Position numbers and translations under genes: made by a program. This document shows positions 2,944 through 9,027 of a stretch of DNA of 10,805 bases, in pieces. The notes below the pieces were generated by a model. The model was not told the origin of the DNA. It saw nothing but the letters and a program-made list of their open reading frames with translations, and made no database searches. Every line of letters starts with the position of its first letter. The stretch's first letter is position 1. Origin of the DNA: a virus; the UHGV virus genome UHGV-0174159. The stretch is one strand, 5' to 3'.

Positions 2944-3417
2944 ATGAAATCATATGCTCAATTTTTAAATGAAGCGGTGTTAAATGAAGCATCTAGCACC
3001 GAAATTCAAGCTGTTGCAAAAGCTGCCATTGCCGCGGGTAAATATTCCTATAAAGATGCTTCCGATGAATCACGATTCCAATTTGCTCGCGACATGAAAG
3101 CAGAAGGATTTACGGGGAATGCTGTTAGTATGGCCTGGAAAAGTTTAGTTGCTACTGGCGCTGCTTTTGCAAAGGCTTCGGGTAAACCTGCTCCTAAAGC
3201 AGATCCTAAAGTCGCACAAGAGAAAAATATTGTTAAAGGAATTATCTCCAAATATGAAGCTATCCTTAAAGAGCTTTTAGTAATCAAAACTGAAGGCCAG
3301 AAACTTGCGCGAGCTCATAGTTTCAAAGATAATCCACATGTTCACTCTCTTGAGTATGTTGAAGACATCCAAAAAATTATCAAAGACCGCATTTGGTCTG
3401 CTAAACAAATCAAATAA
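2944..3417 (+). CDS. internal-protein-like capsid protein with N-terminal capsid-targeting sequence (157 aa)
   Basis: N-terminus MKSYAQFLNE|AVLNE|A resembles the T4 internal-protein CTS (MKTYQEFIAE) with L-x-E prohead-protease motifs; SD AGGA upstream; bracketed by two near-identical terminators. Confidence 0.7.
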   Translation: MKSYAQFLNEAVLNEASSTEIQAVAKAAIAAGKYSYKDASDESRFQFARDMKAEGFTGNAVSMAWKSLVATGAAFAKASGKPAPKADPKVAQEKNIVKGIISKYEAILKELLVIKTEGQKLARAHSFKDNPHVHSLEYVEDIQKIIKDRIWSAKQIK

Positions 3418-4311: not shown

Positions 4312-4348
4312 GTTTACAAACTCTTGGGAGTAGAGTATAATACTCCCA
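4312..4348 (+). promoter_or_regulatory. promoter-early stem-loop (PeSL-like) with perfect TATAAT in the loop
   Basis: TAA-GTTTAC (4312-4317); 8-bp inverted repeat TGGGAGTA (4325-4332) / TACTCCCA (4341-4348); TATAAT at 4336-4341, 18 nt from the -35. Confidence 0.55.
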
Positions 4349-4383: not shown

Positions 4384-4977
4384 ATGAACACACTGAAGAA
4401 AATTGTTGAGTTTATTCGCACTAAACTTGGTTCTGCTATGGCTAAAAATCTATCTGTTGAAGAACAGTATACTGCTGCGGCAGCAAAACTACTTGATAAG
4501 ATTAAAGATCTAAAAACTGCTTCTATTAAATCTATTAATGAAGAAAAACGTATTCGTGAACTTATTGTCGAAAAGAATAAGCAGGCCGAATCAAAAGAGC
4601 GTGAAATTCGCAAGCTTCTTTCGGAAGGTCAAGATGTAACAATGCATGCTAAACTCGGTTTACTATATCGTCGAACAGCTGAGCAGTTGACTACTAAAGC
4701 TGATGGTTATGCTGAAATGCGAATTGAAATCGCCAAGAAAGTAGTTGAATTGGATGATGCTCGCCAAGAACTTGCAGTTAAATTGGAATATATCCGTGAA
4801 ACTCGAGCAGCGAATGCACTTGGAATTAGTACTGCTGATGATGTAGTTGAAATTGCAGCACTGACTAAGGTTGATATTGAAGATACTCTTGCTCGAGTTG
4901 AAACCTTTAATGGTAATATTTCTGGGGTTGAAACCACCTCTGCCGATGTTCAGGAATATATTAATTCTCTGAAATAA
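4384..4977 (+). CDS. hypothetical alpha-helical, probably coiled-coil, protein (197 aa)
   Basis: ATG 9 nt after AAGGA; translation is rich in K/E/A/L and reads as heptad-like throughout. Confidence 0.7.
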
Positions 4978-4982
4978 TGATA

Positions 4983-4998
4983 AGGGGCTTCGGCCCCT
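4983..4998 (+). other. stable RNA hairpin with UUCG tetraloop (AGGGGC-TTCG-GCCCCT)
   Basis: 6-bp GC-rich stem closing a TTCG loop directly after the stop of the 4384 gene; no U-tract follows. C(UUCG)G hairpins are a recognised feature of T4 intergenic mRNA. Confidence 0.6.
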
Positions 4999-5018: not shown

Positions 5019-5627
5019 ATGAAAATGCAAAGTGATTTCAATTCAATGTTTGAAGAATTCCAAAGACAAGTTGATGTTCCAGACCAATTACTAAATGCTC
5101 TTAAACGTATGGCAGAAGGACGTAATTATTATTGGGGTTCTTCATATGAAACTGATGAAAGTCTTTCTGGAAGATTTTCCAGAGGTAAAAAGTCTTTAAT
5201 ACGTCCTGGAATACTTATTAACAGTATTGAATCAATTCATTTATTAACATGCGATTTTGACGTTGAATTTACTGATTTCGTTTCCCCTGAATGGACAGTA
5301 TGTTATTTAAACGACGATTATGATTATCTCGGTGTTTATAGTTTAAGTGACGCATGGTTTAAACGTAATTTACAAAAGTCAAATTTATTTTATATTGATA
5401 CTACTGTAAAATTTCAGGGCAAGAAATATTTCTTTACTCTTATAGTTGATTCTGAAACGAAGCATGAAAATAAACGTATTCTTAGTAAAAAGAATATCTT
5501 AACTATTGTTGATGATCTTTTTGATAAATTCGTGGAAAATCCAAATTTTGAAAGCGATTTATTATTAGAAAAATTTGTTAAGGAATGTAGAGAATATGTC
5601 AAAACCATCACTATACCTTCCAAGTAA
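5019..5627 (+). CDS. hypothetical soluble protein (202 aa) with C-terminal FVKECR motif shared with the next three genes
   Basis: ORF track; GGAG at 5004-5007; a second in-frame ATG at 5025 is an alternative start. Confidence 0.65.
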   Translation: MKMQSDFNSMFEEFQRQVDVPDQLLNALKRMAEGRNYYWGSSYETDESLSGRFSRGKKSLIRPGILINSIESIHLLTCDFDVEFTDFVSPEWTVCYLNDDYDYLGVYSLSDAWFKRNLQKSNLFYIDTTVKFQGKKYFFTLIVDSETKHENKRILSKKNILTIVDDLFDKFVENPNFESDLLLEKFVKECREYVKTITIPSK

Positions 5628-5988
5628 ACCTTTGAAGTATGAATCAAAGCACCAGATAATTTCTACCGATGTATTAATAGGTCCTGTAATAGCTATATCA
5701 TTTGTAATTCTATTGATTATTGGAGGTGTTTTAGATGTTATGACTGATATTGATTCTGGCGAAATACTTGTGTTAATGCTAATTCTTCCATTGGTAGTTC
5801 CACTTTTATTAGTACCGGTAAATTGGGTAGGATACTGGTATCAAGGAAGACATTATCGTAAACGTGTACGTGAATGGAAAGCTCAGTGTAAAAAGATTAA
5901 AAAGGAACACCAGCTTAAATTAGATATGCATGAATTTAACGAAATTATGAAATTTGTTAAGGAATCACGATGCAAAAGCCAAAACTAA
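5596..5988 (+). CDS. small two-TM membrane protein, paralog A (130 aa)
   Basis: ORF-track ORF 5575-5988 starts at a TTG; first ATG at 5596 after AAGGA (5580-5584). Two hydrophobic segments, then a basic tail ending KFVKESRCK. Start uncertain. Confidence 0.55.
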   Translation: MSKPSLYLPSKPLKYESKHQIISTDVLIGPVIAISFVILLIIGGVLDVMTDIDSGEILVLMLILPLVVPLLLVPVNWVGYWYQGRHYRKRVREWKAQCKKIKKEHQLKLDMHEFNEIMKFVKESRCKSQN

Positions 5989-6344
5989 ATAAAGTCAAAT
6001 ATTCTTTTTCTGAGTCATTTTTAATTTTTGCTGTGGCGTTGGCTGCAGCTCTTGCTGGTAGTCTTATTGGATTAATGATTGACTGTATTATTTTAAACAT
6101 CCGCAGTAATGTCAGCGGTATAGTAGATATAATAGAAGTTTGGAGTGAACTTCATTATACTATAGCGATTTCATTATTTTCATTCTTTGGTATTATTTTA
6201 TATTTTCATTATGATAATTTTAAAATAAATTGGCAAAGAAAAAAGGATTACAAAATACAATTAAAAGAATATAATAACTACATGTCTTATATTGAAAATG
6301 AATCAATGAAAGAATTCGTGAATGATTGTAGGAAAATCAAATGA
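5970..6344 (+). CDS. small two-TM membrane protein, paralog B (124 aa)
   Basis: ATG 7 nt after AAGGA; N-terminus MQKPKLNKVKYSFSES resembles paralog A (MSKPSLYLPSKPLKYESK); two hydrophobic segments; tail ends EFVNDCRKIK. Confidence 0.65.
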   Translation: MQKPKLNKVKYSFSESFLIFAVALAAALAGSLIGLMIDCIILNIRSNVSGIVDIIEVWSELHYTIAISLFSFFGIILYFHYDNFKINWQRKKDYKIQLKEYNNYMSYIENESMKEFVNDCRKIK

Positions 6345-6829
6345 TTTTAAAAACTCGCTGGTATGATTTAGATGATGGGGATGATGGCATTTCAGTTGAT
6401 AGAGTTGACTGGAATGGCTGTTCCGAAGATATGAAAAATTTGCTGATTAGGGAGTTTAGAATGGGATATCAACCAGTTAAGCCATCTACTGCAACAGATG
6501 ATAAATTCGTGTGTATTCATAATGGTCGCGCTAAATTAACGAACACTGATTGGTTCACAGATAAGATTATGATTCTGTGGTATATTATTAGTTTTCCTGT
6601 GACATCATTTGTATTTTGCTTCTTTGGAGAAAGTCCAGTAGACAGAACGGGAGATTGGATTATTTTAACCATACTTGTTAATATTTTTACAGCAGCAATA
6701 TTATCTGGGATATGGTACACGTTCATTGAAATGCCATGGCGTTTACGTAGGCAGCAAAAGATTTTTGATGAAAAGAAATATACTCAAAATTTAAATAATT
6801 TTATCACCGAATGCAGGAAATTAAAATGA
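6341..6829 (+). CDS. membrane protein, paralog C with N-terminal extension (162 aa)
   Basis: ATGA start/stop overlap with paralog B; two hydrophobic segments in the C-terminal half; tail ends NFITECRKLK. Confidence 0.65.
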   Translation: MILKTRWYDLDDGDDGISVDRVDWNGCSEDMKNLLIREFRMGYQPVKPSTATDDKFVCIHNGRAKLTNTDWFTDKIMILWYIISFPVTSFVFCFFGESPVDRTGDWIILTILVNIFTAAILSGIWYTFIEMPWRLRRQQKIFDEKKYTQNLNNFITECRKLK

Positions 6830-7266
6830 AAACATTATCAGCTGGTATTATCTTTATGACAGAAGATAAAGATTTATTCATGGGACGGGTTACTGGTTCT
6901 CGTAAGCCTGGAATGATGGCACATCGCTGGGATATTCCAAAAGGCCGTGTAGAAAATTCTGATTTGAGCGCACTAGATGCAGCACGAAGAGAATGCTTAG
7001 AAGAGACCGGTTTTAGCAATTATAATCCAGACCTTCTAGAAGACCTAGGTGTATTTAAATATTCTAGTAATAAAGACTTACAGCTGTTTTATTATACGAT
7101 TCCAGTAGAGCATGAGATGTTTAGAAATTGCCCATGCGAGTCTTATTTTGAAAATAAAGATGGTGTTATGATTCCAGAGATGGATGCTTTTGCTCTTATT
7201 CCTCGTACTCAGTGGCAATATGTGATGGGTCCTTCACTTTACCGAATAATGAACAGCCTCTTTTAA
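6826..7266 (+). CDS. nudE: Nudix hydrolase (T4 NudE / e.1-like)
   Basis: Nudix box GRVENSDLSALDAARRECLEETGF; immediately upstream of lysozyme as in T4. ATG at 6826 (ATGA overlap, AGGA 8 nt upstream) preferred over the ORF-track ATG at 6811. Confidence 0.85.
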   Translation: MKTLSAGIIFMTEDKDLFMGRVTGSRKPGMMAHRWDIPKGRVENSDLSALDAARRECLEETGFSNYNPDLLEDLGVFKYSSNKDLQLFYYTIPVEHEMFRNCPCESYFENKDGVMIPEMDAFALIPRTQWQYVMGPSLYRIMNSLF

Positions 7267-8069
<803 letters not shown>

Positions 8070-8553: not shown

Positions 8554-9027
8554 ATGAAAACATATCAAGAATTTATCACTGAAGCAGCTATTAATTCTCA
8601 AATTATTGCTGAATCTTTTACTGATCTTTTGAAATTTAAAAAAGGTCAAAAAATCACTGCTGTATTGGATGATGGTACAGAAGTTGAGATGGATGTACAG
8701 GGATATAATTATGCAGTAGATGGAAAACTGTATAATAAATCCCATGCTAAATTTGATTCATTTGACGACTTTGTTAATACAGTTGAAGATGAAAAAACTC
8801 GTAGATCAATTTCAACTGGTGATGCTAAGGTTCTTATGGCACACGGTCATGAACGTATTCGCGCTAAACAGAATAAAATGGGTGAAGATAATTTCGCATT
8901 AGTTGGTTATCAATCTGGTAAACAAACTTATGGCTATCAGCGTACTGCTACAATGTATAATAAAAATGGTAAAATTGCCTTTGTAAATAGTAAAGGTTCT
9001 ATTCAGTACGTTAAATCGTTCAAATAA
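8554..9027 (+). CDS. internal-protein-like capsid protein with CTS (157 aa)
   Basis: N-terminus MKTYQEFITE|AAINSQIIAE|S is almost the canonical T4 CTS MKTYQEFIAE; AAGGA 6 nt upstream. Confidence 0.75.
   Translation: MKTYQEFITEAAINSQIIAESFTDLLKFKKGQKITAVLDDGTEVEMDVQGYNYAVDGKLYNKSHAKFDSFDDFVNTVEDEKTRRSISTGDAKVLMAHGHERIRAKQNKMGEDNFALVGYQSGKQTYGYQRTATMYNKNGKIAFVNSKGSIQYVKSFK

Follow-up and report, generated by a model that had tools for sequence, protein, structure and literature searches.

A cluster-specific C-terminal peptide motif shared by soluble and membrane proteins encoded between e.6 and the lysozyme gene of T4-like phages

The e.5 to e.2 genes and their C-terminal motif

The stretch of DNA analysed here (the window; 10,805 nucleotides (nt) of the virus genome UHGV-0174159) is a Tequatrovirus early region. 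Between positions 5019 and 6829 it carries four overlapping genes that are orthologs of T4 e.5, e.4, e.3 and e.2, and the product of each carries the peptide F-(V/I)-x-(E/D)-(C/S)-R at or near its C-terminus. Many Tequatrovirus genomes share 95-98% identity with this 1.8-kb stretch (505 records match it, with Shigella phage JK38 as the best match), and the gene order is that of T4, with tRNA genes followed by e.8 to e.2, nudE, the lysozyme gene e, the internal proteins and denV. At the DNA level, the identity of the four genes to genomes of Tequatrovirus is 82-97%. The overlaps between genes are also the same as in T4, and comprise 32 nt for e.5/e.4, 19 nt for e.4/e.3 and 4 nt each for e.3/e.2 and e.2/nudE.

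All four genes lie on the plus strand and have full-length matches to existing phage protein families. The e.5 homolog (5019..5627; 202 amino acids (aa), ending ...KFVKECREYVKTITIPSK) is a soluble protein that matches phrog_2607 (E=1.4e-109), and PF26876 (Phage_T4_Y06P) is recorded on its RB18 ortholog. The e.4 homolog (5596..5988; 130 aa, ending ...KFVKESRCKSQN) matches phrog_2604 (E=5.6e-70, residues 1-130 against profile positions 1-130), with PF26873 (Phage_T4_Y06O) precomputed on every e.4 homolog. The e.3 homolog (5970..6344; 124 aa, ending ...EFVNDCRKIK), whose stop overlaps the e.2 start as ATGA, matches phrog_2330 (E=9.7e-62, residues 1-122 against 1-122), and its 45 homologs all come from T4-like sources. 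The e.2 homolog (6341..6829; 162 aa, ending ...NFITECRKLK) matches phrog_2203 (E=3.7e-79), with PF26896 (Phage_T4_Y06M) precomputed on all homologs. About half of T4 genes have no known function, and e.2 to e.6 are among them. The four genes are already catalogued as open reading frames (ORFs) without assigned function, under the UniProt-style names Y06P, Y06O, Y06N and Y06M for e.5, e.4, e.3 and e.2, respectively. The databases hold the T4 proteins as separate families, and in a newer Pfam release e.5, e.4 and e.2 are three separate uncharacterised families; neither the shared C-terminal motif nor the paralogy of e.4 and e.3 appears in any annotation that we examined.

The sequence-only reading of the window had described four consecutive genes as ending in the motif. 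All four peptides are present, as F-V-K-E-C-R in e.5 (codons 5574..5591), F-V-K-E-S-R in e.4 (5953..5970, where the next Cys codon overlaps the e.3 start as cgATGc), F-V-N-D-C-R in e.3 (6315..6332) and F-I-T-E-C-R in e.2 (6800..6817), but the e.5 copy lies 11 residues before the stop codon and not at the end itself. To assess how rare the motif is, we scanned T4 in six frames together with nine related loci. Across all six frames of the T4 genome (168,903 bp) there are six matches to F[VI]x[ED][CS]R, four of which are the ends of e.5, e.4, e.3 and an orphaned 3' piece of e.2. In the 755 ORFs (107,701 residues) of the full scan set the core F[VI]xxCR is present 27 times, every time within 26 residues of the C-terminus of an ORF located between e.6 and the lysozyme gene e, while the reversed-sequence control gave none. 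A chance origin of the motif is ruled out by the T4-wide count, the multi-locus count and the reversed control. We show that the motif is present far beyond chance expectation and is specific to the cluster from e.6 to e.

Distribution of the motif among T4-like genera

To locate the same region in other phages, we used e.6 (1107 phage records), e.2 and e.4 as anchors, and read loci from Mosigvirus, Dhakavirus (three phages fetched, two of them scanned), Kanagawavirus (two phages), Jiaodavirus, Karamvirus, Biquartavirus and RB43. The motif is conserved in at least seven genera of T4-like phages. In Mosigvirus it is carried by e.5 (...QFIMECREY...), e.4 (...EFVKEIRCKSLNS), e.3 (...NFIKECRK) and e.2 (...RFITECRNLR), and also by an additional 101-aa protein with two transmembrane (TM) segments (...NFIKECRGK). 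The Dhakavirus carriers are an e.5-like protein, one two-TM protein (...TFIKECKS) and e.2. Kanagawavirus, Jiaodavirus and Karamvirus have four to six carriers each, small soluble proteins included (e.g. ...SFIQMCRGKQNVS); the soluble carriers that are unrelated to the others measure 92-96 aa in Kanagawavirus, 131 aa in Karamvirus and 102 aa in Jiaodavirus. In Biquartavirus, represented by an Aeromonas phage, e.5 is the sole carrier (...LFVDYCRRTASKK), and RB43 has a truncated e.6 and no carriers.

Across these loci the consensus is hydrophobic-x-x-F-[V/I]-x-x-[C, sometimes V/I/S]-R followed by basic residues, and it sits at or near the C-terminus of soluble and membrane proteins that are otherwise non-homologous. 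The signature is thus more general than first noticed: it is a cluster-specific C-terminal peptide of the Tevenvirinae, and e.5 to e.2 are the Tequatrovirus version of a Tevenvirinae cluster that lies 3' of e.6 and 5' of nudE and e.

In Mosigvirus, Dhakavirus, Kanagawavirus and Karamvirus, the interval from e.3 to e.2 contains a second tandem family that is not found in the window (L007:4731-5525; L009:1810-3057; L011:1729-2803 and 3143-3343; L015:10299-10825 in our locus set). It consists of two to six small acidic soluble proteins, all of which terminate in W-[V/I/F]-[S/T]-S-S-x-x-C, the Cys being the final residue.

Architecture of the membrane proteins

The prediction of two hydrophobic segments and a basic tail in e.4, e.3 and e.2 was borne out by the hydropathy scan (Kyte-Doolittle 19-residue means of 1.8-3.0), which detected no hydrophobic segments in e.5 and e.6. 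The e.4 protein has a basic N-terminal tail, TM1 at about residues 28-49, an acidic loop, TM2 at about 57-76 and a 54-residue basic tail that ends in FVKESRCKSQN. In e.3 a basic N-terminal tail is followed by TM1 (about 17-40), a loop, TM2 (about 61-80) and the cytoplasmic tail, and in e.2 a 75-residue N-terminal domain precedes TM1 (about 76-96), a short loop, TM2 (about 106-129) and the tail. All three have in common a basic N-terminal end, two TM segments, a short acidic loop and a basic cytoplasmic tail that ends with the motif. Because Lys and Arg are concentrated outside the loop [numbers in N-terminal tail, loop and C-terminal tail: e.4 4/0/15, e.3 4/1/10; e.2, with its N-terminal domain, 11/1/9], the distribution of charges indicates that e.4, e.3 and e.2 are N-in/C-in hairpins, with a short acidic loop predicted in the periplasm and a basic tail of 33-54 residues predicted in the cytoplasm.

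This topology raises the question of a role in lysis, in which e.4, e.3 and e.2 would act as holins or antiholins. Similar to class II holins, the three proteins have two TM segments in an N-in/C-in arrangement and a charged C-terminus, and their genes lie about 0.5-2 kb upstream of an endolysin gene, e. Unlike class II holins, however, they are larger, they lie in an early transcription context behind an early-type promoter-like site, with nudE between them and e, and they match no holin family in Pfam, PHROGs or NCBIfam (E up to 0.1-1). The T4 holin, t, is encoded elsewhere in the genome, and the knock-down guides in the excerpted part of the CRISPRi-ART supplement are all labelled 'Not Fit', taken as no fitness effect. 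We give a lysis role only the slightest probability.

Within the motif, the conserved positions are -3, 0, +1 and +4. This spacing, together with an AlphaFold2 (AF2) model of e.2 in which residues 103-161 form one helix at low confidence [predicted local distance difference test (pLDDT) 51; the model is unusable for a fold search], suggests that the motif may form one face of an amphipathic helix. In some orthologs the motif Cys is replaced by V, I or S, and these replacements, taken with the helix-like spacing, point to a packing position rather than to a metal or redox site.

Paralogy and its limits

According to the sequence-only reading, the array arose by duplication of one gene family, propagated together with its junctions. 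In this explanation the motif would be a remnant of the duplicated sequence, held in place by the Shine-Dalgarno sequence of the next gene. The architecture common to the three membrane proteins favours such an origin, and part of the claim holds, since e.4 and e.3 are paralogs as judged by profile comparison. In alignments that span several genera (alignments from Tequatrovirus alone are too shallow to decide the question, with an effective number of sequences (Neff) of 1.3-1.6), hhalign relates e.4 to e.3 over 39 columns that cover the entire cytoplasmic tail (probability 92.5%, E=4.9e-7), and the match persists after the last 16 residues are removed (E=2.1e-4). In addition, e.3 matches the e.4 PHROG family over nearly its full length (E=0.008), and Jiaodavirus e.4 and Tequatrovirus e.3 match each other with the motif removed (E about 0.005). 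At the N-terminus, where the two proteins had been said to share M-x-K-P-x-L and K-Y-x-S, the first pattern is present in both, but the second is strictly found only in e.4 (the product of the gene starting at 5596; KYES, against KYSF in the product of the gene starting at 5970).

The similarity does not extend to the array as a whole. For e.3 and e.2, hhalign returned a probability of 84% and E=8e-6 over only 19 C-terminal columns, and nothing meaningful once the last 16 residues were removed (E=0.017 over 8 columns); e.2 therefore shares with the others its architecture and its last ~19 residues. The e.4/e.2 comparison was not significant at full length or trimmed (trimmed E=0.34), nor was that of a fourth ortholog group with the others, full length or trimmed. 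Pairwise BLASTP scores are weak (e.3/e.2 E=0.006 from TM2 to the C-terminal end; e.4/e.3 0.57). With motif-trimmed profiles the best non-self matches are still other membrane proteins of the cluster, which favours duplication, at E-values of 0.004-0.05 that are near the noise floor. Taking e.4, e.3 and e.2 as a single family, similarity beyond the motif is thus significant in one pair only (e.4/e.3), and the common descent of e.2 and several other carriers with that pair, for which the evidence is architecture plus motif, is unproven. By the same sequence comparisons, e.5 and the small soluble carriers, those of Kanagawavirus, Karamvirus and Jiaodavirus among them, are unrelated to the membrane proteins, which also weighs against the duplication of one family.

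Conservation of the motif at the protein level

The motif codons double as ribosome-binding sites, as had been noticed in the sequence-only reading. At all four junctions of the window the motif codons contain AGGA, which precedes the start of e.4 by 11 nt, that of e.3 by 6 nt, and those of e.2 and nudE (6826) by 7 nt each. The Shine-Dalgarno sequence falls on K-E at the e.5/e.4 and e.4/e.3 junctions and on R-K at the e.3/e.2 (AGGA 6330-6333) and e.2/nudE (AGGA 6815-6818) junctions. The repeat AAATTTGTTAAGGAAT is present in exactly two copies in the window, as reported. The first (5571..5586, plus strand) encodes K-F-V-K-E in e.5 and places AAGGAA 10 nt before the e.4 ATG, and the second (5950..5965, plus strand) encodes the same residues in e.4 and places AAGGAA 5 nt before the e.3 ATG. 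Both copies are kept in T4, JK38 and RB18. An exact repeat at two junctions and AGGA inside the motif at all four speak for a tandem duplication that carried its junctions along.

The view that the motif is kept because of the ribosome-binding site was not upheld. In 34 motif instances, F, C and R are encoded by all of their synonymous codons, with free variation (Phe TTT 21 and TTC 12; Cys TGC 16 and TGT 12; six different codons for Arg), and this favours conservation of the motif at the protein level. The position of the Shine-Dalgarno sequence shifts, with 17 to 28 nt separating the Phe codon from the next start, and Mosigvirus e.5 retains F-I-M-E-C-R despite a change of AAGGAA to ATGGAA (ATGGAATGT). 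The motif also persists in the e.5 proteins of Karamvirus and Biquartavirus and in a Jiaodavirus protein encoded after nudE, where no gene starts in the ~40-70 nt that follow. The overlap is a secondary consequence of genes packed end to start; the ribosome-binding site may bias motif positions 3-4 and 6-7, and leaves the invariant F, V/I, C and R unexplained. The claim that the junctions were propagated as DNA likewise failed beyond one case, as only the 16-mer shared by e.5 and e.4 is significant (p about 5e-4) and the remaining junction pairs show no significant DNA similarity. On balance, we consider duplication of a single family together with its junctions an unlikely explanation of the motif.

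A different possibility is that the conserved element acts as RNA, with the 16-mer serving as an operator (e.g. for the translational regulator RegA) or as a coupling signal and the peptide being a by-product. RegA sites are A+U-rich and located at or just 5' of the AUG, and selection experiments (SELEX) gave the consensus aaAAUUGUUAUGUAA (PMC3014915). Written as RNA, the 16-mer (AAAUUUGUUAAGGAAU) agrees with this consensus at 12 of 15 positions and is located immediately 5' of where e.4 and e.3 begin. However, RegA matches this close are not enriched in the window (4 against 2.0 expected, with 28 of 200 shuffles doing as well), the e.3/e.2 and e.2/nudE junctions do not have the 16-mer, and between genera it is the peptide and not the RNA sequence that is conserved. 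An RNA-level origin of the motif is very improbable on these grounds.

In T4-type hyperplastic regions, modular shuffling reportedly takes place via conserved junction cassettes, described by Arbiol and colleagues in 2010 as promoter-early stem-loops. The e cluster is similar in having variable small accessory genes between conserved anchors, short conserved sequences at the junctions, and natural deletions and fusions. It differs in that its junction element is translated and is kept as peptide rather than as DNA, in the lack of a promoter or stem-loop at each junction, and in that the one fusion we examined (phage UFV05, see below) arose inside TM1 and not at the junction repeat.

Variation and dispensability

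Within Tequatrovirus, the variability of TM1, the loop and TM2 exceeds that of the tails by a factor of 2-5 [column entropy averaged over hairpin and tail, in bits: e.4 0.72 and 0.14; e.3 0.49 and 0.16; e.2 0.39 and 0.13]. Some e.4 variants (P0132-P0135) have a wholly different TM1-loop-TM2 (residues 28-76; window positions 5679-5823) between identical flanks, which suggests either a cassette-like replacement of the hairpin or strong diversifying selection. More generally, diversifying pressure or cassette replacement seems to act on the membrane and periplasmic parts of the cluster.

Rearranged and shortened forms are also found. Phage vB_EcoM-UFV05, which is viable, carries residues 1-31 of e.4 fused in frame to e.2 from residue 86 onwards (L008:3575-3895, P0144); the two genes are joined at a 5-nt CCTGT microhomology inside TM1, e.3 is lost and nudE follows directly. 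The reference T4 e.2 is truncated to 102 aa (L001:4153-4461), in contrast to the window and most relatives, in which it is intact at 162 aa, and the 3' end of T4 e.2 (...NFITECRKLK) survives as an unannotated orphan ORF of 53 codons that ends near record position 67501. Other isolates have a truncated e.3 or e.2.

Our literature searches on the e genes by name or accession returned nothing relevant except the CRISPRi-ART supplement, which lists T4 e.2 to e.6, in the part excerpted, as of unknown function. Because the excerpted guides for these five genes are all labelled 'Not Fit', which we take to mean no fitness defect, we infer that the e cluster is accessory and apparently dispensable in the laboratory, as far as this part of the supplement goes.

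Possible roles of the cluster

Nothing but the motif is shared by these otherwise unrelated proteins, and in all of them it would be cytoplasmic; it may therefore be a helical docking or assembly tag, conserved as protein, that links the soluble e.5 with a changing complement of two-TM proteins at the inner membrane, a reading in which we hold belief and doubt in about equal measure. The tag would gather its carriers at the inner membrane, either on one cytoplasmic partner that they share or on one another. In this scheme the constant effector or assembly part would be the conserved tails, and the fast-evolving hairpins would supply specificity for a variable membrane or periplasmic target, a combination of constant tails and variable hairpins that resembles adaptor and sensor families and thereby supports the docking reading. 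Co-assembly is favoured by the translational overlap of the genes, since overlapping reading frames could give coupled, near-stoichiometric synthesis. The role of such an assembly would be an accessory one, such as membrane protection, exclusion of other phages or counter-defence.

Several points weigh against a docking tag. T4 tolerates a truncated e.2 that has no motif, and therefore not every member can be strictly needed for a complex. As the AF2 model of e.2 is poor, the evidence for a helical tail consists of a weak model and residue spacing. An RNA constraint is likely to be mixed in at positions 3-4 (K-E, AAGGAA) and 6-7 (R-K, AGGAAA), because the motif in the window always coincides with a downstream translation-initiation region. 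We identified no partner of the tag, and a motif of ~6-10 residues could also be a degron, a modification site or a regulatory element.

If the carriers dock on a protein encoded nearby, then e.6 is a candidate, and this leads to an explanation in which e.6 is a PspA/Vipp1 protein (ESCRT-III superfamily) and e.5 and the proteins with FIxxCR tails are its adaptors or regulators in a Psp-like module. In known systems small membrane proteins recruit an ESCRT-III-like protein under membrane stress, as PspB and PspC do with PspA and LiaI with LiaH. The e cluster has a similar arrangement, in which e.6, modelled as a helical hairpin, is encoded beside small membrane proteins with conserved cytoplasmic tails. 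The e.6 gene is the constant upstream neighbour in every examined genus that has motif carriers, and RB43 combines a truncated e.6 with the absence of carriers. AF2 predicts e.6 as a long helical hairpin (pLDDT 74.6 overall and ~90 over residues 35-135), and the top 11 Foldseek matches of this model in the PDB are all Vipp1 or PspA, over the full length (E 2.8e-4 to 4e-2). At the sequence level, an e.6 profile has a sub-threshold match to Synechocystis Vipp1 (sll0617; E=1.6, collinear over 1-137 against 1-139), and hhalign aligns residues 1-63 of e.6 with 1-63 of a Vipp1 plus PspA alignment (E=0.004). However, the hhalign probability is only ~8% and a reversed control reaches E=0.03, the AF2 model was built from a single sequence, phmmer of e.6 against the PDB gave no matches, and e.6 has no match to Pfam PspA_IM30 at E up to 0.1. 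There is also no evidence that ties the motif to e.6, and e.4, e.3 and e.2 have no match in Pfam or NCBIfam to PspC-domain or LiaI/LiaF-type TM families.

We therefore treat the model-based likeness of e.6 to PspA/Vipp1 as a lead, one that we would expect to fail rather more often than to hold. That the motif belongs to a Psp-like module is distinctly unlikely, and slightly more doubtful still is the fuller proposal of a T4-like Psp/ESCRT-III-like membrane-maintenance system, in which the tail would let e.5 and the two-TM proteins, as sensors, recruit or control e.6 at the inner membrane. Such a system would protect the membrane and the proton-motive force from superinfecting phages, membrane-targeting abortive infection or premature lysis. 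Our literature searches found no report of a phage-encoded ESCRT-III-like membrane-repair system, and to our knowledge none has been described in a model phage; if the link between e.6 and PspA is true, this would be one.

The cluster can also be compared with Imm and Sp, the superinfection immunity and exclusion proteins of T4. Similar to these, e.4, e.3 and e.2 are small, early, non-essential inner-membrane proteins; Imm has two TM segments and is annotated as acting on the membrane. Unlike the e cluster proteins, Imm and Sp do not have the C-terminal motif, which in the scan across T4 was confined to the e cluster. No match of the cluster proteins in PHROGs or Pfam was annotated as immunity or exclusion, and the phmmer searches with e.4-, e.3- and e.2-type proteins covered all T4 ORFs, with the T4 matches not mapped onto imm and sp individually. 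More broadly, Pfam and NCBIfam returned no functional matches for the cluster proteins, and PADLOC returned no match for e.6, e.5, e.4, e.3 or e.2 at E up to 1. The suggestion from the sequence-only reading of exclusion, immunity or anti-defence proteins thus gained no support and was not contradicted either. We rejected the sub-threshold matches to DUF6652, the Bfi1 immunity protein, YabQ and Adeno_E3_14_5 as noise from TM composition. For e.5, phmmer against 1.84 billion representatives gave six matches and no distant homologs. Four of the six are relatives or fragments (one near-identical at full length, one truncated with 46% identity, one C-terminal with 81% identity and one 61-aa N-terminal piece), and the others are a 31-aa fragment and a repeat protein, the weakest match, which we treated as spurious.

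Several NCBI records name homologs of e.3 or e.4 'sulfurtransferase', and one 'DNA primase' (P0013, P0031, P0059, P0069 and others). A rhodanese/sulfurtransferase identity for e.3 and e.4 was rejected, since no rhodanese domain is present, and both names look like propagated misannotation; one might speculate that the spurious sulfurtransferase label was seeded by the string 'CRK'.

A tag exclusive to this cluster, found in seven genera and on unrelated proteins, is strong evidence that the carriers act together, and five separate hypothetical proteins become one testable module. The motif offers a defined mutational target (F, V/I, C and R) and e.6 as a candidate partner, and the prediction is that the hypervariable hairpins set specificity. 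If none of the readings holds, the cluster is still a clean case of a translated gene junction, with a protein motif and a ribosome-binding site on the same codons.

Flanking features

Upstream of the motif-bearing genes, a near-consensus sigma-70-like site (TTTACA-17-TATAAT, 4313..4341, plus strand), recognised only by its match to the consensus at 11 of 12 positions, is the probable early promoter of the unit. It precedes the e.6 homolog (4384..4977, plus strand; 197 aa, all-helical), the conserved syntenic neighbour on the 5' side, and between e.6 and e.5 lies a G+C-rich hairpin, GGGGC-TTCG-GCCCC (4983..4998, plus strand), with no T-run after it on the plus strand.

The last gene of the overlapping array is nudE, a Nudix hydrolase gene (6826..7266, plus strand; Pfam NUDIX 6e-14). 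Its probable start at 6826 is preceded by AGGA at a distance of 7 nt, overlaps the e.2 stop as ATGA and corresponds to the start annotated in JK38. The T4 annotation uses the equivalent of the ATG at 6811, inside the E-C codons of e.2 and with no Shine-Dalgarno sequence, and because only 6826 has a Shine-Dalgarno sequence before it, together with the ATGA overlap, it is the likelier start.

Three ORFs of the window (2944-3417, 7788-8069 and 8554-9027) begin with MK[ST]Y.[EQ]F[IL].E and resemble the capsid-targeting sequence of T4 internal proteins. One of them contains F-I-T-E, as in the e.2 motif, which we consider a coincidence. A likeness of the C-terminal motif to gp21 cleavage or capsid-targeting sequences was dropped, because the invariant C-R has no counterpart there and the e proteins are early membrane proteins.

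Nine tRNA genes are tightly clustered at positions 1726-2550 of the window, which contains no segB; T4 has eight tRNA genes, with segB inserted among them.

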